NCBI RefSeq assembly: GCF_044324875.1
Contig: NZ_CP172185.1
Strand: one strand, 5' to 3'
Length of the DNA: 64,000 bases
Source: Escherichia coli
Lineage (GTDB): Bacteria > Pseudomonadota > Gammaproteobacteria > Enterobacterales > Enterobacteriaceae
Shown: in pieces, positions 45,482 through 64,000 of the stretch
Layout of the letters: every line of letters starts with the position of its first letter
Position numbering within the stretch: position 1 is the first letter of the stretch
Translations under genes and position numbers: made by a program
Notes under the pieces: generated by a model
What the model saw: only the letters and a program-made list of their open reading frames with translations
Databases searched by the model: none
What the model was told of the DNA's origin: nothing

Positions 45482-45504
45482 TGATGGATGAAATGAATGA
45501 GGGT

Positions 45505-45657: not shown

Positions 45658-45662
45658 ACCGG

Positions 45663-46458: not shown

Positions 46459-47343
46459 TCAGAACAGGTGATCCCACAGAGTGACCAGCAGGTGGATAAT
46501 GCGGTCCCGGGTTTTGCGCAGAAGCTGTAACATCCAGGCCGGAAAACTGAAACGGGCAACGGCGTCGTCAAAACTTTTCCCGATGGTTTCACCAAAAGTC
46601 TGTTGTGCGTGTTTCTGGACCCGTTCAGAGCGGTTTTCCCCCCGGATATGTGAATAAACCGCGCTGGTTGCCTGTGGCGGCAGTGCGTGGATCATCAGTG
46701 ACACCAGTGCCGGAATATTCCAGCCGACAGGCGCGGCAACGGGGAGTACCGGAAATGATGAAGGGAACAGGGTTGCCACCCGGGCTGTCACCGTCGCCAG
46801 CGAGAGTTCCTGGTGACGGGACGGGCATTTTTCTGTGTCGTTCCATTCTTCAGCAGGAAATACGCGATCGGCATGGCTGAGAACAAACAGAAAACGCGAG
46901 GGATCTGCACCTTCATTCAGTAAAAACTGATGCATGGCGATGTCGGCAGCATACGCACGTTCATCAGCCCGCAGGATCCAGATAATCAGATCCAGTTCGG
47001 GCAGTAACTGACTGTAAAGTGCCCGGTATTCCTGATCATGCTGTGGTGTTTCGCCAGTGCCGGGCAGATCGACCAGCGTCATTCTTCGTTCACCGGGCTG
47101 AAAGGTAAGACGATGAGCCTGACGGGTGCAGCCGTTCAGCGGATGCGTGGCGCAGACACGGGACTGAAAAATGGCATTGCACAGGCTGCTTTTTCCGGCA
47201 CCGGATTTACCCATAATGCCAATCACGGGCTCGTAATGAATAACACTGTGGAGATGTTCAAGGATTTTCTGGCGAATTTCTTCAGGAAGAAACGTCAGAT
47301 ATGATTTCACTTGTGCGGAGAGGGAAGAATGGCTGAATGACAT
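46459..47343 (-). CDS. YeeP/YfjP/YkfA-family GTPase
   Basis: 294-aa ORF with P-loop GIMGKSGAGKSS and G3 motif DLPGTG; typical lead gene of CP4-type island cassettes. Confidence 0.85.
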   Translation of the reverse strand: MSFSHSSLSAQVKSYLTFLPEEIRQKILEHLHSVIHYEPVIGIMGKSGAGKSSLCNAIFQSRVCATHPLNGCTRQAHRLTFQPGERRMTLVDLPGTGETPQHDQEYRALYSQLLPELDLIIWILRADERAYAADIAMHQFLLNEGADPSRFLFVLSHADRVFPAEEWNDTEKCPSRHQELSLATVTARVATLFPSSFPVLPVAAPVGWNIPALVSLMIHALPPQATSAVYSHIRGENRSERVQKHAQQTFGETIGKSFDDAVARFSFPAWMLQLLRKTRDRIIHLLVTLWDHLF

Positions 47344-47448
47344 ACCGGTATCCTGTTGATTTCACTGAACCGGATCACACTAATCCGGTTTATCATTCAG
47401 GTAATATGGGCGTGAAAAAATCTGGAGTGACAAAGTTCGGGAGGAGTG

Positions 47449-48399
47449 ATGGCATCACTGTCGATTAATACGCTACGCCGAATGAGCATTTGTAAAAGTC
47501 AGGCCTGGAAAGATACCCAGCGAATACTGAAGCGTAGTGGACTTGTGTACAGAGGGGAACGGTCAGAATCGTTTGATCCTGAGAAACATTTTAATCGTTA
47601 TACGGTGCGTTATCTGTACCTGCTTAACATAATTGCGCTTAAGATAAGGTCGGTTAGTAAATTTTCCTGTTGGATCGAGGTGGGACAATGCCATCGTATG
47701 ACTGGTAAACATTTATCTCTTAATGCCCCGCCTTTTATGCTGATTCCGCGTAGTATCCGGAGAAAAGTGGATGGATTCAGACAGTCAAAAGGTGAAGCAA
47801 CCCCAAAATCGGCTCAACCGTTCACGGGCAGTTTGTATGAGGTTTTGAGAAAGGAGAGCGATTCAGCTAAGCTGGACGCATGGATTGCTGAACTGCCTCT
47901 GAACTTGCAGGAGGAGGGAAAGGAAATCTCAGTCATGGGATTTAGTCCACGGGCTGTGGCCCGACCTGTTCTTCGGTCAGCATCCCCGACGTTTGAACTG
48001 TTTTATCAGGAGTATCAATCCCTAAGATTAAAATCTGTTTTTAAATTTGAACCAAGATTTGAACAACTTTTAACAAGACTGAGCTTTAGAAAACAATCAA
48101 TTCTCAGAAAACAACAATACAGGGTTAAATCGCAATTACTGGAGAGACTGGGGAATGTGTTGTTTTTCACGTCGCTTTATAACCAGGGATGTTTAGAGGA
48201 GTTTATAAATGCACTTGTGGAAAAGGAGGACATTTATCTGAAAATGTCCCCTGGGGAGGAAAAGGTGAAAGCACACCAGAAAATGGTTAACTACATTGAA
48301 GCGTTCTGCAACAAAATGACGGAAAAATACCTGATGCCCGCAGCAAGCAGACACTACAAAAAGAAGAAAATCGCCAGGAGCGAAAGTGGTGAAAGTTAA
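47449..48399 (+). CDS. Hypothetical protein (316 aa), low GC, unrecognised family
   Basis: Strong RBS GGGAGGAG 4 nt before ATG 47449; divergent from the GTPase gene; basic and coiled-coil-rich; no motif I can assign. Confidence 0.55.
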   Translation: MASLSINTLRRMSICKSQAWKDTQRILKRSGLVYRGERSESFDPEKHFNRYTVRYLYLLNIIALKIRSVSKFSCWIEVGQCHRMTGKHLSLNAPPFMLIPRSIRRKVDGFRQSKGEATPKSAQPFTGSLYEVLRKESDSAKLDAWIAELPLNLQEEGKEISVMGFSPRAVARPVLRSASPTFELFYQEYQSLRLKSVFKFEPRFEQLLTRLSFRKQSILRKQQYRVKSQLLERLGNVLFFTSLYNQGCLEEFINALVEKEDIYLKMSPGEEKVKAHQKMVNYIEAFCNKMTEKYLMPAASRHYKKKKIARSESGES

Positions 48400-49184
48400 T
48401 CCAGTCTACCGTACAGAATCAGTTGTTCCAGAATAGCCTGCTGTGTTGTTTTCCGCTCTCTGGTCAGTCTGTCCAGAGCGCTTTTTGCGGATGGCGATAT
48501 CTTTACGTTGATTTGTACCCGTTTATCTTTTTTTCCATCGATAAACTGTTTTCTGAATGCATTGTGCATCTTGTCGAAAAATCTTTCTTTTGCAGCGAAT
48601 CCTAGGTGAAATTCTTTTGGCGTCAGTAAACAGGGTGTGTCTGTGGGGAATAACATTTTTAGTAAAACTACAATGGCAATATATCTTTCGTTATCATTTA
48701 CAGGATTAAACCAGGAAAGATATGTGGGTGAGATACGTGCATCAATATATTCCCATGCCCATTTCAGTTGTTCGGTATTCTTTTTAAGCCATTTGGCTTC
48801 GTTTCTCTTTTCGAGTCCCAGCCAGTTTTGATGCATTATTGAGATAATCCGATCTGCTTCCCCATAAAGGATTAACGCATTAATCCATTTCCCTATAACA
48901 TTCAGTCGTGTTTCATGACTTGAAGGAATAATTGTCATGGGGTTATCCTTCATAACGATCACCCCCTTCAAGGCAGAGTTGAACTCAGATTCATTATTAA
49001 GTTTAAGTTTTTCGGGAACTGTATGAGACATAATTAACCAGAACCAGAATGCTGCAATTTCATTTTTTCTGATCCATTCAGGTATGTGATTATCTGCCAG
49101 ATTATTATCATTCAATAAATGCTCAGTTGTTTTATTTTTCCAGTCATATCTATTCACGTTATAACCGCCTTTATATTGTTTCAT
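48396..49184 (-). CDS. Hypothetical protein (about 262 aa), low GC, C-terminal ribbon-helix-helix-like segment
   Basis: ATG 49184 with RBS GAGG 8 nt upstream (the track ORF starts 29 codons earlier); stop overlaps the convergent gene stop by 4 nt; C-terminus KISPSAKSALDRLTRERKTTQQAILEQLI resembles RHH DNA-binding folds. Confidence 0.5.
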   Translation of the reverse strand: MKQYKGGYNVNRYDWKNKTTEHLLNDNNLADNHIPEWIRKNEIAAFWFWLIMSHTVPEKLKLNNESEFNSALKGVIVMKDNPMTIIPSSHETRLNVIGKWINALILYGEADRIISIMHQNWLGLEKRNEAKWLKKNTEQLKWAWEYIDARISPTYLSWFNPVNDNERYIAIVVLLKMLFPTDTPCLLTPKEFHLGFAAKERFFDKMHNAFRKQFIDGKKDKRVQINVKISPSAKSALDRLTRERKTTQQAILEQLILYGRLD

Positions 49185-49804
49185 CTGATTACGCCTCAAT
49201 CGTTTTCTTTTCTGGTGATTTTCACCATCACATGTCAGTTGTATATGCAAGGGGATCAATAAAAATATCACCCTGCAAGCACTTCAAAGCTGATTATGGG
49301 GATATTCTAGAACTATTCACAAAACTATTCCAGACATATCAAGAACTATTTCTTGACCTATTCATAATAAAATAAAACATGCTATCAACTACGGCTCATA
49401 TTCTCCTTGGGGGTGTCGTTGTACTGTTCGACTGTTCTTGTGGTCAGATTAACAATCTGAAGAGTAAAAGCGACAGTAATCTGTCTGTTATAGTGGCGAT
49501 AAAAACACTGAATGCGCATCCTGTATGTGAAATCCTGTCATGTAGAGCAGTAAGCAATGACAGACATGCATGTTATATGTGAAGGGGGCCGGGAGACGAC
49601 ATAATCAGTATGGCTGTCATTCTGGTTGTAAAACGCGATCACTTTCCGGGGGTAAAAGATGATATGGAGGTTGACAAACGGTTTGCTTCGGATTGTCTTT
49701 TCTGGGGCCTGAAATACGAGGGCAGAAAAATAATTCCAGAGTAAATCTGCTCTGTTTTTAGGACAGAAAACTCCATGCTGGCTGTAAAAGTGAAAAATTA
49801 ACAC

Positions 49805-50881
49805 CCAGTATGTATGGAAGTCTGAAGATGTTGAGAATGTCGGTATGATACTATATACACATATTTTACTAAGTATTTTTACTAAGCATTTCAGTAAGTG
49901 TTATACACGTATTTTCTACTAAGTGTTTTACCAGACATACACGTGTTTTCATAAACAGCCCTATAAGTGTTTTCATTAAGCATTGCTGTACACATTGCTT
50001 TGTCTGAAACACATCCAGTTTAGTAAATCTTTACGTTAGCTAAAATCAGTTTAAAGCTGCTGTAAAACCTTTCTGTTTAAGCAATCAATCTGCTATTCGA
50101 TTTTACTGATGTTGCGTTTAACCTTTTCTGAGATTTCGAGTTTCGACGTTAGCATGAGAAAAGTATCTTTACGCTAAATCAACCCGAACTTTCCTGAAGT
50201 AATCTGACGTTTTTTTCGATGTGCTTACGACGATTCTGTTAAACGACTTTCTGGATGTTTTGATAACAATCAGATTGAGGCATTAACGATTCCTGACGTT
50301 TTCTTTTCCGTGTAAGGTCATTCTTTTTGTCATGAGGTTTCTTCTTGCATTGCGAAAGTGTGATGAACGGTTTTGGTGTTTTTGATTCAGATAAGGTTTA
50401 CGTTATCGATGGTTAATCGTTTTTATGGTGCGTAGTGAAACGTAACTTTTTCAGGATGAGAAAATCGATTCTGATGTTGGTGATTTTTGTTCTTGTGGCG
50501 GGGTTTATCTGTAAACAGGTTTTAAACGTGTCATTCACATCCGTGATTGAGTTGTGTGATTAAGCTGTAGGTTTTGGGGTTGTTGTTGATTTGCATTACC
50601 AGGAAGCGTTCTGGTTGCGTTTCTGGTGTTTTGTTCGAATGTTCTGTGGATCCTTTTCCCTTCTGACTTTTCTCGTTGTCCATGTCGTTTTTAAATCCAT
50701 TCGCTGTTCTTGAGTGTTTTTACCCTGCGTGTAGAATTATCTTTTCGTTCCGGGATGGTTTGTTCCGTTTCAATCACTCTTAATCAGAGAGTTGTAGCAT
50801 TGCTCAATGCCGGATGCCGTAAAGTTTTACCGCGGTGATTAATGATGTGAAGTCAATCCAAATCAACGGAGATCTCTCATC
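49805..50881. other. ORF-free, T-rich (plus strand) 1.08-kb non-coding region with repeated short motifs, upstream of the first gpII-like gene
   Basis: No ORF of 60 aa or more in any frame; strong T over A and G over C skew on the plus strand; repeated TAAGTGTTTT-like and TTTTCG/GTTT units. Confidence 0.5.
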
Positions 50882-51613
50882 ATGAATCAACCAATACATA
50901 ATGCTTACTGGTTATCCCGTTTTGACAGCCTTCTCGACAGTGCCCTGGCGCAGCACCGTGCCGTCTCGTTAATCCGGGTGGATTTACGTTTCCCTGAGTA
51001 TATGCCTGTCACCATCATGGATCCCGATCCGGATTCAGCGGTGATTTCTCGTTTTTTTGCATCCCTGAAAGCCAAAATTCAGGCTTACCAGCGGAAAAAA
51101 AGATGTGCCAATCAGCGTGTGCATGCAACCAGCCTGCGTTATTTCTGGTGCCGGGAGTTCGGCAAGGAAAAAGGCAGGAAACATTATCACGTGATATTAC
51201 TGCTCAACAAAGATACCTGGTGCTCGCCAGGGGATTTCACCGTTCCTTCTTCGCTGGCGACACTGATCAAGCTGGCATGGTGTAGCGCTCTGCATCTTGA
51301 GCCCTGGCAGGGTAATGGACTGGTTCATTTTTCCAGGCGGACGCCTTTCCGTAAACCGGCATCATCTGATGCTCGCCCTTCTTCCGATGATACGCCTTTG
51401 TCGGGTGGATGTTCTGATACCAGGAAGGCTTCAGAAAAAAAGCCGGGTGAAGCCGCTGTTCTCTGGATCAAGCGTGGTGATGTGGAAGCGCTGCAGAAAG
51501 CCCGGAACAGAGCCAGTTATCTCGTGAAATATGAGACGAAGCAGCATGACGGTTCCGGGCAACGTAATTATGGTTGCAGTCGTGGGCCGGGGCGTCTGCT
51601 GGATGGCAGGTGA
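50882..51613 (+). CDS. Inovirus gpII-like (YagK/YfjJ-family) protein, putative HUH-type replication initiator
   Basis: 243-aa ORF with HYHVILLL (His-hydrophobic-His) motif; family typical of P4/CP4-like islands. Confidence 0.65.
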   Translation: MNQPIHNAYWLSRFDSLLDSALAQHRAVSLIRVDLRFPEYMPVTIMDPDPDSAVISRFFASLKAKIQAYQRKKRCANQRVHATSLRYFWCREFGKEKGRKHYHVILLLNKDTWCSPGDFTVPSSLATLIKLAWCSALHLEPWQGNGLVHFSRRTPFRKPASSDARPSSDDTPLSGGCSDTRKASEKKPGEAAVLWIKRGDVEALQKARNRASYLVKYETKQHDGSGQRNYGCSRGPGRLLDGR

Positions 51614-51939
51614 GCCCTGTAAAACGACATCCGGTGCCTGAGCTTATGCTACAGGACGTTGGCTGACGCCCTTAGCTCGTTTTCTGAAAAAGTCGTCCTG
51701 AAGTCATGCAACGGTATTTTTCTCTGCTTTCGCTCCTGGAAACACTCCGTCGGTAAAACCTTACTGTCCTGCTTAATGATGTGAACCGAAGTCAACGGAG
51801 ATCATTCATTCTGAACCTGCATCCGGTGTTCTGTCCCTTGTCGGTTACCTGATCTTCCCGTTCTGCCGCGGTTTTTCACTTATTCCATCAACCCCATACG
51901 CAAGCCATAACACGTCAGCGCATCCACGGGCAGGACGCG

Positions 51940-52542
51940 TTGTGGGCTGCGTATAACGGAACATATCTTATGAATGCTATCCCTTATTTCGACTATAGCA
52001 TGGCGCCCTTCTGGCCATCTTATCAGAACAAAATCATCGGCGTTCTCAACCGTGTGTTGCGCGAGCAGTCCTGCTCCCGAATACGGCGGATCCTGCTTCG
52101 TCTGCCGGGGGAACATGGCAACATCTTCAGCGACAGAAAAACCTGGTTCGGTATGGCCTTTATCGAAACCGTCAGTGCGCTGATGAATGCAACCCCCGGA
52201 CGCGACCTCTGCTGGCTCCTGACCCGTCATCCTGAAAAACCGGAATACCACGTGGTGCTGTGCGTCAGACAGGAATATTTCGACGGCCCTGAGCTGGACC
52301 GGTTGATTCTGGATGCCTGGAGCAACGTACTGGGCTTCGCGTCACCGGGTGAAGCAGCACCGTACCAGAAACAGATAACCCGGGATGTGGTGCTGGACAG
52401 TTGTTCACCGGACTGCGAAGAGAGACTCAAAGAGCTGATATGGGCGTTCAGTGATTTCGCCCGCGATCGTCGTGGTGTGCGCGATCCGGAAGCCCGTTAC
52501 CTCGCCGGTAATCCCTGGTATCCCGTAGCAGGCCAGCTCTGA
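51940..52542 (+). CDS. Inovirus gpII-like (YagK/YfjJ-family) paralog
   Basis: 200-aa ORF with EYHVVLCV motif and a similar upstream sequence motif to the 50882 gene. Confidence 0.6.
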   Translation: MWAAYNGTYLMNAIPYFDYSMAPFWPSYQNKIIGVLNRVLREQSCSRIRRILLRLPGEHGNIFSDRKTWFGMAFIETVSALMNATPGRDLCWLLTRHPEKPEYHVVLCVRQEYFDGPELDRLILDAWSNVLGFASPGEAAPYQKQITRDVVLDSCSPDCEERLKELIWAFSDFARDRRGVRDPEARYLAGNPWYPVAGQL

Positions 52543-52610
52543 AAGCTCAGCTCAGCAGATTCACCCGCATTTGCCCAACATTCATAAATCTCACAGAGGA
52601 CATTCTGACC

Positions 52611-52847
52611 ATGTTGACCTCAATGACAGGTCACGACAGCGTATTGCTGCGTGCCGACGATCCCCTGATCGACATGAACTACATCACCAGCTTCACTGGT
52701 ATGACCGACAAATGGTTTTACAAGCTGATCAGTGAAGGCCATTTCCCTAAACCCATCAAACTGGGGCGCAGCAGCCGCTGGTACAAAAGTGAAGTGGAGC
52801 AGTGGATGCAGCAACGAATCGAGGCATCACGAGGGGCAGCAGCATGA
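52611..52847 (+). CDS. alpA: AlpA-family prophage transcriptional regulator (P4-type)
   Basis: 78-aa ORF with MerR-like HTH (ITSFTGMTDKWFYKLISEGHFPKPIKLGRSSRWYKSEVEQWM). Confidence 0.8.
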   Translation: MLTSMTGHDSVLLRADDPLIDMNYITSFTGMTDKWFYKLISEGHFPKPIKLGRSSRWYKSEVEQWMQQRIEASRGAAA

Positions 52848-53596
52848 AACGTGTTGTAATGCCGGTACGCTGGCAATGTGCAAAATACCAGCGTTGGTAT
52901 TGTGGAAATCAGCCCTGTCCCTGGTGCTGGCGACCTGCTGCCCCCGTCTGTCATTCCTCGTTCTTCGCTGTAACAGGCATCGTACCGGTCTCGGCGTGCT
53001 TTCCTGCGTACCGACACCGGTTCAGCAACATTCAAGGGGATCAAATCGTGCAAATAACCGAAACCGTACTTTCAGAGCCGGTGGAAATCCGGCGTTTTAT
53101 TCAGCAGGCGGTGGATCACTGGCCGCGTCTGCTGGCCGTCCACTTCACACTCCATTCGGCAGAAGGAAACATCAACGGACAACAGATTCATGCATTCTGT
53201 ACTTCCTTTTACCGACAGGTGCACGAGCGTATTACTGAACGTAATCACACGGCCAGTCCAGCACCACCGGTGGTATTACGCTGGTTGCGGGAACAACATG
53301 GAGGAGCAACAATGCGATGCCTGTTGCTGCTCAGCCAGACGAGCATTTGCCATCCACGGGTCAGTGCCACGGTTGATGAAGAATGTTCGCAACGGGTGGA
53401 TTTATTGCAACAGACATGGCGGGTGATAAGTGCTGACGGACAATGCCGGGTGGAAAGGTGTTTTCAGGCTGCCCGGGGTGATACATCCGGCCAGTATATT
53501 GCGTTAAAAACAGTTGCATTGTCTCTGGGGTTACCGGTTGTGACCGGTATTACCCATCGCCCGGTACAGCGCTGTACATTGATTACAGCTCAGTGA
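52844..53596 (+). CDS. Hypothetical protein (250 aa), translationally coupled to alpA; possibly a third gpII-like paralog
   Basis: ATGA overlap with the alpA stop; contains AVHFTLHS in a context resembling the other two paralogs; Cys/Trp-rich N-terminus. Confidence 0.45.
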   Translation: MKRVVMPVRWQCAKYQRWYCGNQPCPWCWRPAAPVCHSSFFAVTGIVPVSACFPAYRHRFSNIQGDQIVQITETVLSEPVEIRRFIQQAVDHWPRLLAVHFTLHSAEGNINGQQIHAFCTSFYRQVHERITERNHTASPAPPVVLRWLREQHGGATMRCLLLLSQTSICHPRVSATVDEECSQRVDLLQQTWRVISADGQCRVERCFQAARGDTSGQYIALKTVALSLGLPVVTGITHRPVQRCTLITAQ

Positions 53597-53613
53597 ACAG
53601 CGCTGTTGTGCAG

Positions 53614-53916
53614 TCAACGAGGTTTTCTGTCTTTTCGTCGGTCATTCAGCATCATTAAACGGGTCTCTGCCTCTTTCTGTTCCTGTGGTGTCACTTCCCC
53701 GCACGGCTGACCGTTCAGGTTGTAACGGGCGCCACCTGCTATTAACGCACGGTAATAGCGCGGAGACTGCACATAAGACGCCACTGCTGCATGTAATGTA
53801 CCAGCGCCAAACGCCAGTTCTCGGATGGCGATATCCTGTATCAGGTCGTCAGGTATCCCCACTTTAAGTGGTTTTGTTTTTTTCCCGGTTGAATGACTCA
53901 GGCCAGAGTTCCACAA
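53614..53916 (-). CDS. Hypothetical small protein (100 aa); uncertain, possibly a remnant
   Basis: ORF convergent with the alpA module; an adjacent 64-aa ORF (53931-54125) lies on the same strand, so both may be fragments of one decayed gene. Confidence 0.25.
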   Translation of the reverse strand: MWNSGLSHSTGKKTKPLKVGIPDDLIQDIAIRELAFGAGTLHAAVASYVQSPRYYRALIAGGARYNLNGQPCGEVTPQEQKEAETRLMMLNDRRKDRKPR

Positions 53917-54510
53917 GACGAATAATGCGCTTACGGTTTTTGCTCTGGCGTTTTGTCATGTCGCCACGGTGTTTTATCAGCAGGTTTCTGTTTATCGTTC
54001 AACTGTGGTATCTGGTCACCGGCCTTCATTTTGTATGCTGTGTCCGTTTTATCCTGCAGCGGCGTTGCCGGTGATTTACTGAAAATACCCTGCGGTTTAC
54101 GGTTAATGGTCAGAGTTACCATCAATTTTGTTACCTCGCGCTGTCAATGGAAGTAGTACCTCATCCGATATCTGAAAATGTTTTCCGGTGGATGTTACAG
54201 CGAATTTCATGTAAGACATGTTGTTGTCGGTATTGTTCAGTACTGTGCGTTGTGAGCGTATTCGTTATCAGACAGAGGGGCAGGGAACAAACGTCAGAGG
54301 TTAAGGATATCCGGGAACAAATGGCGTAAACGGACATCTCAGTGCCTGAGAAACAGTACAGGTCAGGCCATCATGGCCTGCAAACAGAGCCCTGGCGACC
54401 CCGTGGCCGAAAACGAAACAATAACCCGCGCGCAGTGCGAGGAATCCGGATGTGAAGCAATCAGCAGGTAATATTAATGGCAGGACCAGCAGGTTCTTTA
54501 AACAAACGAA

Positions 54511-55273
54511 GGTGGTGACTCCAATTAGTAGAACATATATTTTTCGATAAAGGCACCGATGACTTTTTCATGAAGTTCTACAGAGCGCGAGAAACAGATA
54601 GTTCTGCGGGCCAGACGTTTGATTCGGGTTCTCAGAGGTAGATGTTGCGCTCAATGCGCTGAGTAAAAATCTTACCAGTCAGATGCTTCTCCTTCGGTAA
54701 CTCTCTGGTGTAACTACCCCATTCGTCAGTGGTCAACATACCGATGGTAAAAGGGCAAGCAGCGCCAGCAATTCACGACAGGTTTAATCAGTCCGTAGGC
54801 CAAAAGTGTAGGCCAGAACGCCACCAGTTTTCGTGTTGTACGTGTACCAGAGCCAGTGCTGTCGCGCTTTACTGCCGACAAAACTCCATTGCTCATCAAG
54901 TTCGCAGATGAGTGCCATATCAGCATGAGCGACCGGGTATGACGTTATTCTTCGTGGCGAGAGTTTTTTAAAGTCCGGATGACAGTATTAATGCCGATTT
55001 TCAGCGTACGGGCAGTATCGCGAACTCCGGCACCGTTGAAAGCCATTTCAGTGATTTGCTCTTTAACTCCCGGTTTACGGGCCTCGTAACGGTAAGTGAG
55101 CTGAAGCACTCGATGACAGTCACGGCAGCGAAATCGATCATGTCCTTTGGGTTCTTCCCGTGACGGTAAACCTGAACGGACTGGCAACAGGAGCAATGAA
55201 GGTTAACTGTGACCATGAAAGAACCTTAAAAGTGGCTATTATACTCCTAATTCAACTAATTGGAGTCATTACC
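54511..55273 (-). mobile_element. IS1-family insertion sequence (divergent isoform), apparently defective
   Basis: 763 bp; terminal repeats GGTGGTGACTCCAATTAGTAG (left) and AATTGGAGTCATTACC (right); InsA-like and InsB-like coding on the minus strand, each split across two frames. Confidence 0.8.
54945..55216 (-). pseudogene. insA: insA-like gene with internal frameshift
   Basis: Zn-finger N-terminus (MVTVNLHCSCCQSVQVYRHGKNPK) is in one frame and the HTH C-terminus (GHDRFRCRDCHRVLQLTY...AFNGAGVRDTARTLKIGINTVIRTLKNS) in another; downstream InsB-like sequence (...RTRIKRLARRTICFSRSVELHEKVIGAFIEKYMFY) is also split. Confidence 0.6.
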
Positions 55274-55281
55274 GTATTCAT

Positions 55282-55452
55282 AATGGATTAGGTTCAGCAG
55301 TTGCTGAAGTGCTTGTAGAAACTTGTCCTGTGCCCATGCGTCGGGTGGGGGTTAAAGAGCGGTATGGCCAGGTTGAAACTCAGGACTTTTTACAGAGAGA
55401 GTACGGGTTAACCGCGCAAGCTATTGTGGCGGCAGCCAGAGAGCTATTGTAA
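55282..55452 (+). pseudogene. Transketolase C-terminal-domain remnant, truncated by the IS1 insertion
   Basis: Frame encodes ...GLGSAVAEVLVETCPVPMRRVGVKERYGQVETQDFLQREYGLTAQAIVAAARELL-stop, a typical transketolase C-terminal tail, beginning immediately after the IS1 right end with no upstream gene body. Confidence 0.55.
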
Positions 55453-55653
55453 TTCATGGAGTTTGTTTACCATTCTGTTTTTCTTAAAAGTGAGTGTCTG
55501 TGCGGTCACTAAACTCGGTAATAAAGCAGTTCATTGCAGGATAAGAAGCGTTTGGTTGTGTCGTTTTACCGTAAGAACCGACCGCCGTATGTATCCATTA
55601 AGCCAGTATTGGTAACGTAGGTGCCCACCTTTTCAAACTGGTGGGCGCCTGTT

Positions 55654-55826
55654 ATGGAGCAAAAACATTATCCGCAGAACCCCGCAGATCATTTTCAAAT
55701 GAGTTAAACTTCAAATGGTTAAACTGGTTTTGCAACCAGGAGCCTCTGTTGCCCGTATTGCCCGGGAACACGATATCAATGATAACCTCCTGTTCAAATG
55801 GCTCAGACTCTGGCAGAACGTAAGGT
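55654..55826 (+). pseudogene. Transposase helper (HTH OrfA-type) remnant of an unidentified IS
   Basis: Short frames encoding MEQKHYPQNPADHFQMS-stop and ...LQPGASVARIAREHDINDNLLFKWLRLWQ, resembling IS OrfA HTH segments; interrupted by stops. Confidence 0.3.
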
Positions 55827-55904
55827 AAAGGGAGATGAAAAAGGCAATAGCAGAACTGAGTGACAGTGAAACCATTCTGGCGTACAGGGTTGGATGGTGA
55901 AACT

Positions 55905-55938
55905 GATAAAAAACCCTCTGAAAATTCTGTCAGAGGGT
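55905..55938 (-). terminator. Candidate rho-independent terminator (minus strand)
   Basis: Perfect 8-bp stem ccctctga/tcagaggg with 8-nt loop, followed on the minus strand by T6. Confidence 0.35.
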
Positions 55939-56649
55939 GTAGTCAAAAATGGTAGATATTTACGATGCAGTAATGCTTTCACTCCGGTAATTAATTTCCG
56001 TGATTAACTGCTTTCGATCAATAAAGGAATTGCAAAAGTGTGATCTTGTTCACGACATTGTGGATGATAATATGCCTGATGTCTGAATCCGGAAACAGTG
56101 ATCTGGCGGTTTCATGTGAAGTTGACGGATAAAAAATCCGCACGACCAGACAGACGTGCGGTTTACGAAATTCGTAACAAGAGGCTTTTCTACGGATCAC
56201 GTGGTGCGTGCCACGTGAAATTTTTGTAGCGCAAAATGTGTGATGTGTAAATACAAGGAAGGAAAAAAGTTAAATCGGTGGAAGTCCATGCCTGCCACAT
56301 GTATGTCTGCATTCCTCGTTTTGAACAGAATTCTCACCAGACATCGTGAATTTCTCATTCAATCATCAGAGATATTACCCAGGATTTTTATTGTTTTGTG
56401 ATAGCAGTACTTTAAATGTTCAGATGCTAAAATAAGCGCGCTTATTATAATTATAGTTATGATGTTTTATCTGTATGTATTTTAATGATTTTCGCGTCAT
56501 TGCTTTTCTGCTGCTTAAATTGAAGGCGCATATTATACACAATAATATTCCTGGCATTATTAAATTAATAAAAGAGGATTCTTATCACTGTATTTTTGCT
56601 CCGCACTACCGTTCTGGCTGGTGAAGTAATAATACAGGAGAATAACAGA

Positions 56650-58197
56650 ATGCTTAAAAGACGTGATGCTTTTTTAAAGAAAAGCGCGCTGGCAGTGAGT
56701 GTGGCCCTGCTGCTCTCGGCTCAGGCTCAGGCTCAGGATATTTTAATCGGACCGATTGAACCTGGCGAAGATAATAGCTTTCTTGTTGGAGAATCAGTAG
56801 CTGGCCGTTCGATTGATAAAGTAAGAAATGTATGGTTGATTGGTGATGATTCTTTTTTATTAGACTCAAACAGGACTGTGCTTTTGGGGAATAATTCTGA
56901 TGTTGTGAACTCTCCGGGAAGTGTGAGTCTGGGGCATGATGCACTTATTGCTGACTCTGAATGGGGGACTGTTGCAGGAAAAGAAGCGTCACTTATTTCT
57001 TCTCGTCAGAGCTCGGCAATTGGTGCGTTTTCATCTGTGCAGGATTCTACCAGTTCTGTAGCTCTGGGCCATGGCTCACAGGTGTCGGGAGAAAATAACG
57101 TGGTATCTGTTGGTGCCGGGCCTGAGGGATATGGAGAGAGTGTCAAAGGAGCACCGGAAACCCGCCGGATTATAAATGTGTCTGATGGTATCAATAACAC
57201 AGATGCAGCGACGGTAGGGCAACTGAATGAACGATTTGATGATGCACAGGTCTTTTTGTTGCAGACGAATGAAAGAATTGACGAGACAGATAAACGTCTT
57301 TCAACAGTTCATGCTGAACTCAGCAGGGATATTATTGCAGGCACATCGGCAGCGGTGACGTATACAGATGTAACAGCGCTTGCACTTCAGGATGAGATAA
57401 AGGATGGGACGAACAAAGTACGTGATGAGTTGAAATCACAGGGAGACAGTCTGCGTGGTGAGATAGGCGGTGTATACAGAGATGCCCGTGCTCATACTGA
57501 CAGTCAGGTCACAGCAGTACGTGATGAACTGAAGGCAGAGGGAGACAGTCTGCGCGGTGAGATAGGCGGTGTATACAGAGATGCCCGTGCTCATACTGAC
57601 AGTCAGGTTACAGCAGTACGTGATGAACTCAGCAGGGATATTATTGCAGGCACATCGGCAGCGGTGGCGTATACGGATGCATCTTCTCTTGCTCTTCAGG
57701 ATGAAATAAAAGAAAAAGCGGATGAAACAGTTCAGGTTTCCCGGGCTTATACAGATAAAAGTGTACGGGATGCCCGTAAAGAAGCGAAAAGCCAGGCAGA
57801 ACATCTCAGCGATGTGCTTGTGAAGAACAGGGCGCAGACGGATGCAGCAATAGCCTCAAATACAGCAGCGATAAGGAATAACAGTCATCGTCTGGATTTG
57901 ACGGAAGCCTGGCAGAAGATGGCGACAGAGAGAATGAATAATATGCAGGAGCAGATTAAAGAGAACCGGAAGGAGTTAAGGGAGAGTGCAGCCCAGAGCG
58001 CGGCACTGGCAGGTCTTTTCCAGCCATACAGTGTTGGAAAATTTAACGCGACAGCAGCCGTTGGTGGTTACCGTGATGAGCAGGCCATTGCGGTGGGCGT
58101 GGGCTACCGTTTCACAGAGAATGTGGCAGGAAAAGTTGCAGTTGCTGCAGGTGGGTCATCCGCATCGTGGAATGCTGGTGTGAATTTTGAGTTCTGA
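56650..58197 (+). CDS. YadA-type trimeric autotransporter adhesin (515 aa; Eib/Saa-like size class)
   Basis: Signal peptide [29 protein letters not shown], repetitive coiled-coil stalk, and C-terminal YadA-like anchor ending ...[19 protein letters not shown] 9 nt upstream; AT-rich 5' region. Confidence 0.8.
57313..57730 (+). repeat. In-frame tandem and nested repeats inside the adhesin stalk
   Basis: A 105-bp unit (...[33 protein letters not shown]) occurs twice in tandem (about 57424-57528 and 57529-57633), flanked by two copies of a second roughly 100-bp unit ([16 protein letters not shown]...ALQDEIK) at 57313 and 57625. Confidence 0.7.
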
Positions 58198-58258
58198 CAG
58201 GTCAGGATTTAGATATCTGTCCCGGGGGGAGTCCCCCGGGATATAATGAGGTACAGAG

Positions 58259-58714
58259 ATGCTGGATATAATCCTGGCGACGAGAGATATTTATTTTGAA
58301 AAAGCCCTGCGAGAGATATTTGGAACCGTAAGCAGTCGAATCAGATATATAGAAGATGCCATATCAGACAGAAGAAGGGTGCAGTCAGGCAGGTCATTCA
58401 GATATTATTTTGTATTCTGTGATGATGAGTATACAGATATTGTTCGTATTCTTTTTACCGGAGAGGCCTGCTGTATTCTGAATAAGTCGATGCTGAATCT
58501 GAGAGCGGCCGGAGGTGTGTTGACGCTGGAAGAGCGCAGAGCGGTACTGAACCGGTATTACAGAGGTTTAAGTATTGCGGAGATTACAGAAGAGACGGGG
58601 CAGAATGACAAGACGGTATACGGTCATCTTCGTCGTGCACTGCAGCGGTCTGGATTCCGGAAGGGGCGTTTTATAAAGGGGAGAGAAGCGGCGGGGGATT
58701 CAGGTGTTGAATAA
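58259..58714 (+). CDS. Putative transcriptional regulator with C-terminal sigma-70 region 4 / LuxR-type HTH
   Basis: 151-aa ORF; C-terminal LTLEERRAVLNRYYRGLSIAEITEETGQNDKTVYGHLRRALQ resembles sigma region 4/GerE-type HTH; 60 bp downstream of the adhesin gene. Confidence 0.45.
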   Translation: MLDIILATRDIYFEKALREIFGTVSSRIRYIEDAISDRRRVQSGRSFRYYFVFCDDEYTDIVRILFTGEACCILNKSMLNLRAAGGVLTLEERRAVLNRYYRGLSIAEITEETGQNDKTVYGHLRRALQRSGFRKGRFIKGREAAGDSGVE

Positions 58715-58788
58715 TGTATCTTATATTGTGATATTGAACCGCCCCGGGAATCCTGGAGACTAAACTCCCTGAGAAAGAGGTAAACAGA

Positions 58789-59115
58789 ATGACTAAAAAT
58801 ACTCGTTTTTCCCCCGAAGTCCGTCAGAGGGCGATTCGTATGGTTCTGGAAAGTCAGGGCGAATATGACTCACAGTGGGCGGCAATTTGTTCCATTGCCC
58901 CAAAGATTGGCTGTACACCGGAGACTCTGCGTGTCTGGGTACGCCAGCATGAGCGGGATACCGGAGGCGGTGATGGCGGGCTCACCACCGCTGAACGTCA
59001 GCGTCTGAAAGAGCTGGAACGTGAAAATCGTGAACTGCGCCGCAGTAACGATATCCTTCGCCAGGCTTCCGCTTATTTTGCGAAGGCGGAGTTCGACCGC
59101 CTCTGGAAAAAGTGA
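58789..59115 (+). CDS. IS629 transposase OrfA
   Basis: 108-aa [63 protein letters not shown]... matching IS629 OrfA. Confidence 0.9.
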
Positions 59116-60002
59116 TGCCACTGCTGGATAAGCTGCGTAAGCTGTACGGGGTCGGACCGGTATGCAGTGAACTACATATTGCCCCGTCAACGTATTACCA
59201 CTGTCAGCAACAGCGACATCATCCTGATAAACGCAGTGCCCGTGCGCAGCGCGATGACTGGCTGAAGAAAGAGATACTGCGCGTATACGATGGGAATCAT
59301 CAGGTATACGGTGTGCGTAAAGTCTGGCGTCAGTTGTTACGGGAAGGAATCAGGGTAGCCAGATGTACAGTGGCGCGCCTCATGGCGGTTATGGGACTTG
59401 CCGGTGTTCTCCGGGGTAAAAAGGTCCGCACTACCGTCAGCCGGAAAGCCGTTGCCGCAGGCGACCGCGTAAACCGTCAGTTTGTGGCAGAACGTCCTGA
59501 CCAGTTGTGGGTGGCTGATTTTACTTACGTCAGCACATGGCAGGGGGTCGTCTATGTGGCGTTCATCATTGATGTGTTTGCCGGATACATCGTGGGGTGG
59601 CGGGTCTCATCGTCTATGGAAACGACATTCGTGCTGGATGCTCTGGAGCAGGCGTTATGGGCCCGTCGACCGTCCGGCACAGTCCATCACAGTGATAAAG
59701 GTTCTCAGTATGTATCGCTGGCCTACACACAGCGGCTTAAGGAAGCCGGATTACTGGCATCAACAGGAAGTACTGGTGACTCGTATGACAACGCGATGGC
59801 GGAGAGCATCAATGGCCTTTACAAAGCGGAGGTAATACACCGTAAGAGCTGGAAAAACCGGACAGAAGTGGAGCTGGCCACACTCACGTGGGTGGACTGG
59901 TATAACAATCGACGATTGCTGGAAAGGCTGGGCCATATCCCACCGGCAGAAGCAGAAAAAGCTTATTATGCTTCCATCGGAAACGATGATCTGGCAGCCT
60001 GA
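59112..60002 (+). CDS. IS629 transposase OrfB (DDE integrase core)
   Basis: 296-aa ORF overlapping orfA by 4 nt; motifs [16 protein letters not shown] and [15 protein letters not shown]. Confidence 0.9.
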
Positions 60003-60410
60003 GTTCACAGATAAAACACTCTCCAGGAAACCCGGGGCGGTTCATATCGGTGCTGCTGCTGTTATTTTTTGTTGTATTTGTGACGAATGGTTAAGAATAA
60101 AACATGAGTTGGTGATTATCAGGACAGGTTGCTTGTATATGAAGATAACAAAGGCGGCATTTATTTTTGCGCTGTCAGTGTGGAGTGTTGCTGTGATATG
60201 TCTTTTATTATTTGTACTGGTTGTTCTGGGATAGCTATAGTGGAATTATTATTTTTTTAAGACTATGGTTTATATTTTTATTCGGCAATATTTCTGTAAA
60301 CAATTAAATATCAGAAAGGCGTGTTGTATGCGTGAACACGCCTGAGTATGTATACAGAGATTGTTAATTTGGAGAGAATAATTACAGTTGTTATTTATTT
60401 GACGTCCTGA

Positions 60411-60695
60411 TTAGTGAAAAAACCAGTCATCAGCAGTTTCCCAGACTTCCTGCAGCGTTTCCTGTATGAACTTCTGAGCGTTTTCTTTATCTACGGCTCT
60501 TAAAATGGTCAGTCCGTCATTACTGGCGGATTTTACTATAACCTCCACATCGTCATATCGTTTTCTGGTACGGCGAGACATTTCCTGTTGTAGAGCAGGT
60601 ACAGAGCCTTTTGGCATTTTGCTGAATTTTTCTTTAGCGATACAGATCTCAATACGAATAAAAGTCCCTCTGCACTGTGTTATTTTTATCTGCAT
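60411..60695 (-). CDS. DinI-family protein (DNA-damage-inducible protein I-like)
   Basis: C-terminus [18 protein letters not shown] matches the DinI signature [25 protein letters not shown] resembles the DinI N-terminus MRIEVTIAK; true start within the 94-aa track ORF is uncertain. Confidence 0.6.
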
Positions 60696-61541
60696 GAATA
60701 AACAGTGTCAATAGATAAGATTGGTTGTAAGGAATCAATGGAGCATGTATGGGACATTTTTAACCGACTAAATTCACAGAAGTTCGTAGGCATCGAAAAC
60801 GAATCATCTGTCCAACCCTTTAAAAACGGCTCTCTTGGACGATTTTCGTCGTTTTTTAAAATGCAACAAGTACGTTGTTCATATGATTTCATTCCATCTC
60901 ATGGGACTGGCGCTACCTTTGTTTGATCTCCCTTGGTATGAGAATTTTTCTGAAATTTTTGGACATTTAGTAGGGTTCTGGTCCATTGAAATTGTTCGCA
61001 GATATTTACGAAACAGAATTACTCATGAGCCAGACCTTGAGATCCATTTAGGCTCAAACAGATAATGTATTGAATTATAAAAATGGCGCAAATACAGTGC
61101 CATTTTTATGGGGTAAATGTTACTTATTTCCTTCTGATACAGGAGAAAAAAGGTCTGATGCAGGTAGCCAATGAGCCTGTAACTCCACTTCGATACTGTA
61201 GAACTGGAGATTTCTACGGAGGAAGACACGTTGTTGCTGGAAGTGAGGAGAAATCTCGGGTGATGTTGAATCATGTTAATACATCAGTAGCACTGGATAT
61301 CGGGAGAACGGTACTACCAGAGGGACAGCATACGCCCGCTACAGTTTGGCGGGCGTAAGGGCATTAAGATTTTTAGAGAGAGCGTTCAGAATTCTGTGTC
61401 ACGTTAAAAATTCTACAGTGTCATCACAGTATTCAGTCGCCCTTCAAAATAAATGGCTAACTGCGACAATGTCAAATTCCAGCTCTGGATCGGCATTGTC
61501 CATTTTTTCTGTACGTTCATCAGCCCCAGATAAAGCAGCTT

Positions 61542-61981
61542 CTACAGACTATTTTCATTCGGGAAAGCACCTTTGGTTTTGGTCAGTTTCCTGAACTGGC
61601 GATGGACTGATTCAATCGCATTTGTGGTGTAAATGACCTTGCGGATATTTGCCGGATAGCGGAAGTATGCTGACAGGTTTTCCCACTTGCGACGCCACGA
61701 CTGAAGCACCACCGGATATTGCTGGCCCCATTTCGCCTCCAGCTCATCCAGCGCCGTTTCTGCGGCTTCTTTCGACACCGCGCGATATACCGGCTTCAGG
61801 TCGGCCATGAACGCTTTGTGGTGTTTTGCCCTCCAGATTCAGCGCCAGCACCGTGTAAACGACCTTGCTCTGGTAGCGGCCATCCTCCCTGATTTTATAG
61901 TGAATGGCATCCAGCCATACGAAGGGGTAAACCTTCTCCAGCGGGCGCTGTTGCCACTGTTTTAACTCAGGAATGACCTTA
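61542..61981 (-). pseudogene. IS256-family (mutator-type) transposase remnant, internally deleted and truncated by the IS66-family insertion
   Basis: Minus-strand frames encode ...IPELKQWQQRPLEKVYPFVWLDAIHYKIREDGRYQSKVVYTVLALNLEGK and, in another frame, MADLKPVYRAVSKEAAETALDELEAKWGQQYPVVLQSWRRKWENLSAYFRYPANIRKVIYTTNAIESVHRQFRKLTKTKGAFPNENSL; the segment between them is too short. Confidence 0.7.
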
Positions 61982-62018
61982 GTAAGCGTACAGCGAGGGC
62001 CGTATTGACGGGGATGTG

Positions 62019-63557
62019 TTATTCAGCTGGCAGTGCTATGCGCCACGGAAGCAGTTCGCTGACCCGGTTGACCGGCCAGTCTGCTATGACGCCAAGCACA
62101 TGGCGAAGGTAGCTTTCTGGATCCACGTCATTCAGTTTGCACGTCCCTATCAGGCTGTACAGTAGCGCTCCCCGCTCACCACCATGGCCAGAGCCGAAGA
62201 ACAGGAAGTTTTTACGACCCAGACTTACCGCCCGCAGGGCATTTTCAGCGATGTTGTTGTCGATTTCCACCCAGCCATCGTTCGCATAGTACGTCAGTGC
62301 CGGCCACTGGTTAAGTGCGTACGCGAACGCCTTCGCCAACTCTGAGTGTCGCGACAGGGTCTTCATCTTTTCACGCAACCAGCTTTCCAGGGATTTCAAC
62401 AGCGGTTTCGTTTTTCGCTGACGTTCAGCAAGCCGCTGCTCTGCCGGCATTCCCCTTATATCCGCCTCTATGGCGTACAACTGACCGATCTGCTCCAGGG
62501 CTTCTTCCGTCAGTGCTGACGGGATGCGGACGTGCACATCGTGGATCTTTCGGCGGGCATGAGCCCAGCAGGCAGCTTCCGTTATCCCACCATTGCGATA
62601 CAGCTCGTTGAACCCGGCGTACGCATCCGCTTGCAGCACACCGCTGAAGCAAGCAAGATGAGTCTGCGGATGGATGCCTTTTCTGTCCGGGCTGTAAGCG
62701 AACCACACTGCAGGTGCCAACGCTGACCCGGCATTGCGGTCATCACGAACATACGCCCACAACCGCCCGGTCTTCGTCTTCTTATTACCCGGCATCAGTA
62801 CCTGGACCGGGGTATCATCGGCATGGAGTTTGCCGTCAGTCATGACATAGCCATGAAGCGCCTCTTCCAGCGGAGACAGCAGCCGGCAGCATGCATCCAC
62901 CCAGCCCGACAGCAGTGAACGGCTCAGCTCCACACCTTGCCGGCCGTATATTTCTGACTGGCGATACAGCGGGGTGTGCTCTGCATACTTCGAGGTCAGC
63001 ACGCGGGCCAGCAGCCCCGGTCCGGCGATACCCCGCTCGATGGGCCGCGAAGGTGCAGGTGCCTGCACGATGGCATCGCACTGAGTACAGGCATGTTTTT
63101 CCCGTACCGTCCGGATAACCCGGAAGGCGCTACGCATCAACTCCAGCTGTTCGGCGGTATCCTCGCCCAGATAGCTCAGTGAACCGCCGCAGTTCGGGCA
63201 GCACGGCGCCGCAGGCAACAGTCGCTTTTCGTCACGGGGTAGTGATTCAGGGAACGGCTTACGGATGCGGGTCTGACGCAACGGACGCTGTACTGCCGGG
63301 TCATACACCCTACCAGTCAGCGTATCGCTCTCTTTCTGAAGCCGGTTCAGATCGGCTTCCATTTGTGCGATACGGCGGGAGACTTTTTCGGAACGACTGC
63401 CGAAGTTCATCCGGCGGAGTTTATCCAGCTGCGCCTGCAGATGGTCTATTTCGCGCTCCCGGTTGCTCAGCTTTTCCTGCAGGGCGTGGATCAGCGCTTC
63501 CTGTTCGGCCAGGCGCTGTTTCAGCAGGAAGATGTCGTCAGAAGAGATGTCGTTCAT
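62019..63557 (-). CDS. IS66-family transposase (large ORF)
   Basis: 512-aa ORF with N-terminal coiled coil ([20 protein letters not shown]), zinc-finger CCPNCGG...CTQCD and DDE core typical of IS66 transposases. Confidence 0.85.
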
Positions 63558-63606
63558 AAGCCCGTATTTTACCGGGCTTATTCTGTGACAACCAGGATAA
63601 AGAGAT

Positions 63607-63954
63607 TTACAGCATGGTCAGGGAGGTCAGCAGCCGCTTAGGCTGTCGCCAGTCGATACCTTCCAGCAGCATCGCCAGCTGCGCCTGTGTAAGGAACACT
63701 TTGCCATCACGGGCTGACGGCCAGGCGAAGCGCCCACGCTCCAGCCGTTTGGTCAGGAGGCACAGTCCGTCACCGGTGGACCACAGCAGTTTAACCTGAC
63801 TGCCGCTGCGGCCCCGGAAAATGAAAACATGGCCGGACATGGGATCGTCTTTCAGCGCCGTCTGTACTTTCGCAGCCAGGCCGTTGAAGCCATTTCTCAT
63901 ATCGGTGATACCGGCAACCAGCCAAATTTTGGTCCCGGAAGGTAAAGGGATCAT
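63607..63954 (-). CDS. IS66-family accessory protein TnpB (orf2)
   Basis: 115-aa [34 protein letters not shown]...[36 protein letters not shown] matching IS66 Orf2. Confidence 0.88.
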
Positions 63955-64000
63955 CGCTTCAGTTCCTGTATCAGCAGAGTCAGGAGCTTTTCGCTGACAT
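63951..64000 (-). CDS. IS66-family orf1 (TnpA helper), C-terminal end only; rest lies beyond the window
   Basis: Minus-strand frame ending ...[12 protein letters not shown] with TGA overlapping the tnpB ATG (ATGA), the standard IS66 orf1/orf2 coupling. Confidence 0.5.
   Translation of the reverse strand, partial: VSEKLLTLLIQELKR

Follow-up and report, generated by a model that had tools for sequence, protein, structure and literature searches.

Nested insertion of ISEc8 in a decayed IS256-family transposase gene of Escherichia coli

Related Insertion Sequences

ISEc8, an IS66-family element, has been annotated in many E. coli, O157:H7 among them, and known copies carry the GTAAGCGTACAGC terminus and adjacent, full-length tnpB and tnpC genes. 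Elements of the IS256 family duplicate 8 to 9 bp of target DNA, and two members in E. coli are relevant here: an element with a 400-codon frame on IncF-type plasmids (NZ_CP148283 36384-37678, WP_097760936.1; also NZ_CP010136 and NZ_CP023734), and IS1414 (family profile NF033543), the carrier of astA/EAST1, which occupies the equivalent prophage end in strain TUM1886. Nesting of ISEc8 in another insertion sequence also has a precedent in E. coli GPEC60-33-648 (locus L012), where a copy splits an IS1 and is flanked by an 8-bp duplication; the YadA-like/HTH gene pair, also present at the locus described here, lies immediately upstream.

We analyzed a 64,000-nucleotide stretch of E. coli DNA (the window), the right end of which had been interpreted in a sequence-only reading as an IS66-family element inside an internally deleted IS256-family transposase gene. 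Both alignment to ISEc8 and the ISEc8-free loci that carry the same gene remnant (the relic) bear out this nesting. The ISEc8 copy differs from known copies in its location alone, its site inside the IS256-family relic being absent from every searched collection. The relic has the terminal repeats of the IncF-type plasmid element, but has lost 221 bp, terminates prematurely at codon 358 and is interrupted by ISEc8. IS1414 was rejected as its identity, as the relic and its intact relative share only ~52–55% nucleotide identity with that element despite belonging to the same family, and the question of astA therefore does not arise. The nesting in L012 has a different recipient (IS1) and a different position, and is thus an independent event.

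ISEc8 at the Right End of the Window

The last 2,019 bp of the window (61982-64000) correspond to the first 2,019 bp of ISEc8, for which a full length of 2,442 bp is predicted. The visible features are as follows.

61982-64000, minus strand: visible part of ISEc8, aligned to annotated copies; far end predicted at ~64423, ~423 bp past the window
61982-62007, unstranded: ISEc8 terminal inverted repeat, tnpC-proximal end, beginning GTAAGCGTACAGC
62019-63557, minus strand: tnpC, DDE transposase, 512 aa, full length (Pfam and NCBIfam)
63607-63954, minus strand: tnpB, accessory gene, 115 aa, full length (Pfam and NCBIfam), immediately upstream of tnpC
63951-64000, minus strand: last 50 nt of tnpA, truncated where the window stops; position assigned from collinearity with L012

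The alignment is gap-free against two reference copies, both labeled 'IS66-like element ISEc8 family transposase' in RefSeq, with a single mismatch to L012 1879-3897 (99.95% identity over 2,019 bp) and 99.3% identity to the copy in locus L013 over the same length. We measured ends and duplications directly in these two copies, which are 2,442 bp long, have the termini GTAAGCGTACAGC.../...GCTGTACGCTTAC and are flanked by 8-bp duplications. In the window, ISEc8 homology ends exactly at 61982, the first G of GTAAGCG. This GTAAGCG-type start is identical to both ends of the reference copies, one end being visible here; the first 13 bp of the repeat equal the opposite end of full copies, and the match is imperfect to ~26 bp. 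TnpC matches the Pfam families DDE_Tnp_IS66 (E 9e-107), LZ_Tnp_IS66, zf-IS66 and DDE_Tnp_IS66_C, as well as the NCBIfam IS66 transposase model NF033517 (457 bits, cut-off 180, E 5e-137). TnpB matches TnpB_IS66 (E 1e-38) and NF033819 (120 bits, cut-off 50). The 50 nt of tnpA are identical to and collinear with L012 (tnpA 3848-4228, tnpB 3504-3851), and the end of tnpA overlaps the start of tnpB (ATGA). This is an intact-looking copy of a known E. coli insertion sequence.

The IS256-Family Relic and Its Decay

The IS256-family relic directly adjoins ISEc8 and reaches further left than had been supposed. The sequence-only reading began the region at 61542 because a TTG>TAG stop lies there; this is a premature stop and not the natural gene end, and the relic extends to 61378.

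61378-61981, minus strand: IS256-family relic, 3' 604 bp, from BLAST against the intact relative, with Pfam Transposase_mut and NCBIfam IS256 matches
61829-61981, minus strand: upstream transposase fragment, codons ~139-189 (...KVIPELKQ...VWLDAIHY...LNLEG), from translation and Pfam (144-194)
61824-61828, unstranded: deletion junction, with one TTTTG left (gene orientation CAAAA); the intact element has two, 221 bp apart
61542-61808, minus strand: residual 88-codon ORF MADLKPVY...NENSL, codons 270-357, ending at the premature TAG
61378-61401, unstranded: relic terminal inverted repeat (GAGAGCGTTCAGAATTCTGTGTCA), where homology to every intact relative begins
61370-61377, unstranded: IS256-family target-site duplication, 8 bp, TTTTTAGA (gene orientation TCTAAAAA); the second octamer is in locus L003

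Relative to the intact 400-codon relative, the relic covers CDS nucleotides 414-1203 except for 221 bp and continues through the 3' end of the element. It aligns to the intact element of plasmid NZ_CP148283 (L001) in two BLAST pieces, 61378-61828 at 95% and 61824-61981 at 96% identity (94.3% for the whole relic). As the earlier reading had stated, the IS256-type frame runs right up to the GTAAGCG terminus: read downwards from 61980, the minus-strand frame gives KVIPELKQWQQRPLEKVYPFVWLDAIHYKIREDGRYQSKVVYTVLALNLEGK, and DNA homology to the intact element reaches 61981. The upstream fragment (E 8e-12, 45.2 bits, profile 144-194) and the 88-codon ORF (E 2e-21, 76.8 bits, profile 276-360) both match Pfam Transposase_mut above its cut-off of 21. 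With NF033543 (cut-off 150) the intact relative scores 414.6 bits, and the 88-aa fragment alone falls below the cut-off at 102.5 bits because it is partial. The exact 88-codon ORF has been predicted by gene callers in 57 blocks of public assemblies.

The two pieces share 5 bp at 61824-61828, which allowed the join to be reconstructed exactly: the relic lacks CDS nucleotides 567-787 of the intact relative (codons 189-263), and the ACVDG motif with them. The deletion proposed between LNLEGK and MADLKPVY is therefore real, with a size of 221 bp (~74 codons, frameshifting) in place of the ~80 codons originally estimated. Many plasmids give matches that end at 61828; the idea of a shared recombination breakpoint at this position was rejected, the effect being trivial: a query without the 221 bp breaks any intact reference there. 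The relic also carries four nonsense codons, at codon 358 (TTG, Leu358 of the intact relative, changed to TAG at 61542-61544) in the window and at codons 18, 36 and 84 upstream, the latter seen in related genomes.

Some IS families do use two reading frames, and the two IS256-type frames could in principle belong to a natural, shorter two-ORF or programmed-frameshift element that never suffered a deletion. Comparison with intact relatives refutes this interpretation, to which we give a vanishingly small probability: in all relatives at 88–95% identity a single uninterrupted 400-codon ORF runs through this point and contains 221 additional bases there, the missing part holds the conserved ACVDG motif, and the relic has its four nonsense codons. 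Nor are the two frames contiguous in any intact relative: each of these, on plasmid or chromosome, aligns in two pieces with ~221 extra bases between them.

We assign D162, D228 and E335 as the putative catalytic DDE triad, from resemblance to IS256/Mutator motifs. The upstream fragment would then contain the putative first catalytic Asp, D162, and the second was presumably lost with the ACVDG motif. A single continuous ORF of ~400 codons with a complete triad is absent from the relic, given the deletion, the codon-358 stop and the interruption by ISEc8. Because the deletion takes codons 189-263 and shifts the frame, this copy is unable to encode a transposase; it is a remnant, and not a functional member, of the IS256 family.

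At its outer end the relic retains the marks of its own insertion. Its terminal repeats agree at 19/24 positions between window 61378-61401 and L003 9358-9381, an ISEc8-free locus, and the TCTAAAAA octamer lies on both sides of the relic, at window 61370-61377 and L003 9350-9357. In a diverged homologous locus that has no IS256-family element, the octamer stretch is present as a single copy.

Order of Events and the ISEc8 Insertion Site

The same relic occurs without ISEc8 in 15 other E. coli assemblies, where it is 100% identical over 1.5–1.9 kb and has the same deletion and stop. It runs uninterrupted across the ISEc8 position in all 19 fetched loci from these assemblies, and ISEc8-free contigs with the exact 88-aa ORF, itself a product of the deletion and the stop, are 100% identical to window 61981..60232. 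ISEc8 is therefore the last, recent event and entered an already deleted gene, in agreement with the earlier proposal of successive insertions. In the same 15 assemblies the unoccupied site reads GCGGTGACCGA-TAAGGTCA-TTCCTGAG.

61974-61981, unstranded: predicted ISEc8 target-site duplication, 8 bp, TGACCTTA (gene orientation TAAGGTCA), adjoining ISEc8

The octamer TGACCTTA is predicted to have been duplicated by ISEc8, and its second copy would fall outside the window. Simple insertion with this duplication is a prediction, as neither junction was found in a public sequence: the exact left ISEc8/relic junction had 0 matches in genome_contigs and metagenome_contigs, and neither 5,426 complete E. 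coli genomes nor 72,556 plasmids (PLSDB) contained it. Similarly, an exact-protein look-up with the window's YadA-like protein returned no record, and look-ups with the HTH protein and the neighboring hydrolase led solely to ISEc8-free or unrelated places. Since the far side of ISEc8 was not recovered in the window's lineage, the remainder of the relic is read from ISEc8-free relatives.

The junction might instead be a rearrangement breakpoint, produced by recombination with another ISEc8 or by an adjacent deletion or inversion after insertion. ISEc8 is present in E. coli strains in high numbers (a genome can have as many as 51 matching places, a count that includes the IS3 part of the query), IS copies are common recombination substrates, and the right junction lies outside the window and was not found in contig scans. 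The visible junction, however, falls exactly at the ISEc8 terminus, the window has no sign of a rearrangement, and 15 related assemblies have an uninterrupted target between flanks that are 100% identical, as expected of a fresh simple insertion, so that we regard a breakpoint as improbable. We consider it highly improbable that a contig was misjoined to an ISEc8 copy and that the relic really contains none. The element is multicopy and a second public sequence with the junction was not found, but misassemblies normally join inside repeats and not at their edges, and this join is base-exact at a true IS terminus beside a plausible 8-bp target. As an indirect indication, 15 blocks with the 88-aa ORF and 8 with the hydrolase lie on contigs under 2 kb, which would fit short-read assemblies of other genomes that break at this very place.

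Simple insertion into the relic is thus retained, and with high confidence we propose three layered events at the distal end of an E. coli chromosomal prophage or island: IS256-family insertion, decay and ISEc8 insertion. Direct observation covers what ISEc8 is and where exactly it terminates, the deletion and the microhomology at it, the nonsense codons, the succession of events and the IS256-family duplication. First, an IS256-family element of ~1,295 bp entered the spacer that separates an alpha/beta-hydrolase gene from the remnant of a tail-fiber-assembly gene, duplicating the 8 bp TCTAAAAA. This copy then gained stops at codons 18, 36, 84 and 358 and lost 221 bp between CAAAA pentamers, most likely through replication slippage or another form of microhomology-mediated illegitimate recombination. 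Finally, in the window's lineage only, the 2,442-bp ISEc8 (tnpA-tnpB-tnpC) would have entered the relic after CDS nucleotide 421, at the target TAAGGTCA and in the orientation of the dead IS256-family gene.

Beyond ISEc8 we expect a second TAAGGTCA and, after it, the other 470 bp of the relic. Directly after the terminus ...GCTGTACGCTTAC the sequence TGACCTTATCGGTCACCGCGCTGATGG would appear, in which the duplicated octamer leads into the relic sequence seen at L003 9358-9827. For a simple insertion, the right junction is predicted to be CGCTTAC, TGACCTTA and TCGGTCACCGCG..., or in longer form ...GGCTGTACGCTTAC, TGACCTTA and TCGGTCACCGCGCTGATGGTGG..., and the relic should finish with the terminal repeat TGACACAGAATTTCTAACACTCCC, beyond which TTTTTAGA and the alpha/beta-hydrolase gene are expected.

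Neighboring Insertion Sequences

A further insertion sequence, specific to the strain, lies 1.3 kb to the left of the relic.

58735-60044, plus strand: IS3-family element, IS629/IS1203-like, 1,310 bp, flanked by TAT
58789-59115 and 59112-60002, plus strand: orfA and orfB of the IS629-like element

This element is absent from locus L004, the flanks of which are otherwise 100% identical, and it is 94.9% identical to IS1203 in L013. It matches the NCBIfam IS3 model (NF033516) at 308.7 bits and has the features of that family, namely orfA and orfB with a -1 frameshift signal, TGAAC...GTTCA repeats and a 3-bp duplication. The Rfam ALIL pseudoknot, associated with IS3 frameshifting, scores 116 bits at 59070-59186, and scanning all of the window for tRNAs and Rfam families detected nothing besides this pseudoknot. 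Related loci around the same YadA-like/HTH/DinI stretch have IS2-like, IS1414, other IS256-family, IS1::ISEc8 and IS4 insertions. With other IS elements both nearby and in related loci, 'IS trap', the term used in the sequence-only reading, is a fair description, for which the support is only qualitative.

Implications

The reading of nested insertions is correct and concerns known elements; the region is ordinary mobile-element debris where a prophage or island ends, and it points to no new element, mechanism or function. All three ISEc8 copies examined lie within or next to DNA of other insertion sequences, and two of them have near-identical target octamers, (C/G)AACAACC. It is conceivable, though very improbable, that ISEc8 prefers other IS or their remnants as targets, or that the 88-codon remnant ORF is expressed as a transposase-derived regulator. 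If such targeting were real, the nesting would reflect target choice and not neutral accumulation.

Beyond annotation the finding has very little significance: it sets the boundaries of an ISEc8 copy that looks active and of a dead IS256-family copy. The relative chronology of IS256-family insertion, decay and ISEc8 insertion could serve as a marker of strain lineage, since both the ISEc8 and the IS629-like insertion are missing in loci whose sequence is otherwise 100% identical, and the locus illustrates how IS debris builds up at prophage ends.

Identity of the IS66-family element

The IS66-family element proposed in the sequence-only reading is ISEc8 itself, an already known element, and it starts exactly at the GTAAGCG terminus recognized there, the first G being position 61982. 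In a megablast search of 5,426 complete E. coli genomes it gave thousands of matches with 99-100% identity, which carry the annotation 'IS66-like element ISEc8 family transposase'. Two of its genes lie within the window:

62019-63557 (-): ISEc8 tnpC, full length, 512 aa; Pfam DDE_Tnp_IS66, E 9e-107; NCBIfam NF033517, 457 bits, far over the cut-off
63607-63954 (-): ISEc8 tnpB, full length, 115 aa; Pfam TnpB_IS66, E 1e-38; NCBIfam NF033819, 120 bits, far over the cut-off

Aligned to two annotated ISEc8 copies fetched with their flanks, 61982-64000 matched one (L012, from GPEC60-33-648) without gaps at 99.95% identity, with one mismatch, and the other (L013) at 99.3%. Comparison of these two reference copies gives an element of 2,442 bp with the ends GTAAGCGTACAGC... 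and ...GCTGTACGCTTAC, and both copies have a perfect duplication of 8 bp at their flanks (CAACAACC for one, GGTTGTTC for the second). The window holds 2,019 bp of the element, whose far end should lie past the window, near 64423.

Anatomy of the IS256-family relic

ISEc8 interrupts a gene whose pieces lie in two minus-strand frames of 61542-61982, one reading KVIPELKQWQQRPLEKVYPFVWLDAIHYKIREDGRYQSKVVYTVLALNLEGK and another MADLKPVY...NENSL*, which match positions 144-194 (E 8e-12) and 276-360 (E 2e-21) of the Pfam Transposase_mut profile, with about 81 profile positions missing between them. Its nearest DNA relatives are IS256-family elements of E. coli plasmids (~95% identity), followed at 88-93% by elements of E. 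albertii, Salmonella and Klebsiella plasmids and some E. coli chromosomes. IS1414 was rejected as its identity, at only ~52-55%. The relic is a decayed version of an IS256-family element with intact copies (94% identical) on E. coli plasmids.

Every relative aligns in two pieces with extra sequence on the reference side, and the gene is indeed internally deleted. For the anatomy of the relic we used the intact element of plasmid NZ_CP148283 (L001; CDS 3014-4216, 400 codons). Identity to it is 95% over 61378-61828 and 96% over 61824-61981, pieces that overlap by 5 bp in the window and stand 221 bp apart in the plasmid. At the nucleotide level, CDS nt 567-787 (codons 189-263) are gone, and with them the peptide KKEILGLYLSESEGANFWLSVLSDLQNRGVEDILIACVDGLTGFPEAINSIYPQTEVQLCVIHQIRNSIKYVAS. 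A CAAAA pentamer lies at each border of the lost sequence, and one is left, at 61824-61828 (TTTTG in plus-strand reading). The internal loss proposed earlier therefore stands, while its size is 221 bp with CAAAA microhomology rather than about 80 codons; the frame changes because 221 is not divisible by three. IS256/Mutator transposases carry a DDE triad, and we take D228 in the deleted ACVDG, by motif resemblance, to be the second catalytic Asp; D162 (VWLDAIHY) and E335 (TNAIES), presumably the other members, are retained.

Position 61542, at which the sequence-only reading had placed the limit of the element, is instead an additional premature stop, TAG where the intact relative has TTG (Leu358) and runs 43 codons further. 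Homology to all relatives extends to 61378, the true boundary, where a 24-bp terminal inverted repeat starts (GAGAGCGTTCAGAATTCTGTGTCA).

Order of insertions

Since the deletion, by its start context, and the stop together create an 88-aa ORF (MADLKPVY...NENSL), we looked up its exact sequence, and public assemblies contain it in 57 blocks. All loci fetched in this way are 99.9-100% identical to the window from 61981 to 60232 or further, and identity breaks off exactly at 61981 for the sole reason that they lack ISEc8; beyond that point they continue without interruption into upstream sequence of the IS256-family gene (...GCGGTGACCGA TAAGGTCA TTCCTGAG...). Together with loci gained by a second look-up, via the neighbouring hydrolase gene, the ISEc8 site is unoccupied in 19 of 19 loci from 15 distinct assemblies. 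The relic thus occurs with its deletion and stop but without ISEc8, so both are older than ISEc8, whose insertion, after CDS nt 421, is the latest event and, given zero substitutions in the flanks, a very recent one. The nesting proposed from the sequence is borne out by these unoccupied sites, which show that the IS66-family element entered an already deleted IS256-family gene. The duplicated octamer is expected to be TAAGGTCA (TGACCTTA on the plus strand). The octamers at the three ISEc8 copies are located as follows:

L012: 1871-1878 and 4321-4328
L013: 2276-2283 and 4726-4733
Window: 61974-61981

The exact ISEc8/relic junction had no matches in GTDB representative genomes or JGI metagenomes, and neither the junction nor the deleted relic was found in any of the 5,426 complete E. 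coli genomes or in a PLSDB plasmid. A simple insertion is nevertheless strongly indicated, because the terminus is exact and the target is intact in 15 relatives with identical flanks. The far junction lies outside the window, and a rearrangement at that end is very improbable; a misjoin of the assembly at the repeat is more improbable still. Many contigs carrying the 88-aa ORF (15 blocks) or the neighbouring hydrolase (8 blocks) are under 2 kb, as would be expected of short-read assemblies interrupted at the ISEc8 site between the two genes; this is an indirect sign that public data may contain ISEc8-occupied genomes.

The remainder of the relic, read in ISEc8-free loci, has three more nonsense codons (positions 18, 36 and 84), and its far terminal repeat agrees with that in the window at 19 of 24 positions. 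The octamer TCTAAAAA lies outside both ends (9350-9357 in L003, an ISEc8-free locus; 61370-61377 in the window, minus-strand reading). A synthetic empty site, both flanks joined with one octamer copy, matches several E. coli chromosomes in one piece over the joint at ~83% identity, and in alignment the homologous empty locus has a single copy of the octamer stretch between alpha/beta-hydrolase and tail-fibre-assembly genes. The IS256-family element therefore came by ordinary transposition, with an 8-bp duplication.

Genomic surroundings and IS accumulation

The relic stands at a prophage or island end, adjoining potAB-pepT-phoQP in related assemblies. The window is E. coli DNA, and 44000-58734 is 99.3-99.6% identical to islands in many strains. 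About 1.3 kb to its left is another insertion sequence:

58735-60044: IS3-family element (IS629/IS1203-like), apparently intact, 1,310 bp

This element has TGAACCGCC...GGCGGTTCA ends with TAT on either side, an orfA/orfB pair and an Rfam ALIL frameshift pseudoknot (59070-59186, 116 bits), and shares only 94.9% identity with O157 IS1203. It is strain-specific, being absent from the related locus L004, where the flanks are 100% identical.

The two genes at 56596-58714, for a YadA-like trimeric autotransporter and a small HTH protein resembling sigma-70 region 4, form a module (also in L002, L012 and L014-L023) that is found repeatedly at the ends of both lambdoid prophages and CP4-like islands. 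Public assemblies contain the exact HTH protein in 5,466 blocks (at most four copies per genome); the YadA-like gene is very variable in length (412-581 aa), often with an IS just downstream. The DinI-like gene (60411-60695, -) has prophage-borne counterparts at 99% identity in thousands of E. coli genomes; few complete E. coli genomes contain the 640 bp to its right (60738-61378). A short ORF at 61083-61358 (+) and the DNA around it match the 3' part of what is annotated in the homologous locus L024 as a phage tail-fibre-assembly gene; here the gene appears to survive only in truncated form, as a remnant at the end of the prophage.

Other IS DNA surrounds or adjoins each of the three ISEc8 copies examined: the IS256 relic in the window, an IS1 that one reference copy has entered, and an IS4-family pseudogene and IS1203 next to the other. 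The two reference target duplications, CAACAACC and GGTTGTTC, lie in opposite orientation and, with the second read as its reverse complement GAACAACC, share 7 of 8 positions; with three copies, this likeness and the IS neighbourhood could reflect target preference or chance. In NZ_CP148283 (L001 1803-4216), the intact reference element lies tail to tail with a second, different IS256-family transposase gene and its end overlaps the last 30 bp of that gene's annotated CDS, suggesting another IS-in-IS or IS-next-to-IS arrangement.

It is common for one IS to lie inside another, and nothing at this locus is new in kind. With three refinements (the 221-bp deletion, the stop at 61542 and the boundary at 61378), the sequence-only reading is correct overall in observation and interpretation. 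Its term 'IS trap' is apt as a description of a stretch that gathers insertion sequences, as different elements occupy it in other strains: a 1.3-kb IS3-family element at window position 60232-60238 (L003, L005 and L008), IS1414 between the HTH and DinI genes (TUM1886), an ISEc8-split IS1 directly downstream of the HTH gene (GPEC60-33-648), and IS256-family or IS4 elements within the same few kilobases (L017, L019, L020 and L023). These loci are not an unbiased sample, because the look-up tool shows loci whose neighbours differ. The build-up is most simply explained by insertions being neutral in decayed prophage-end DNA.
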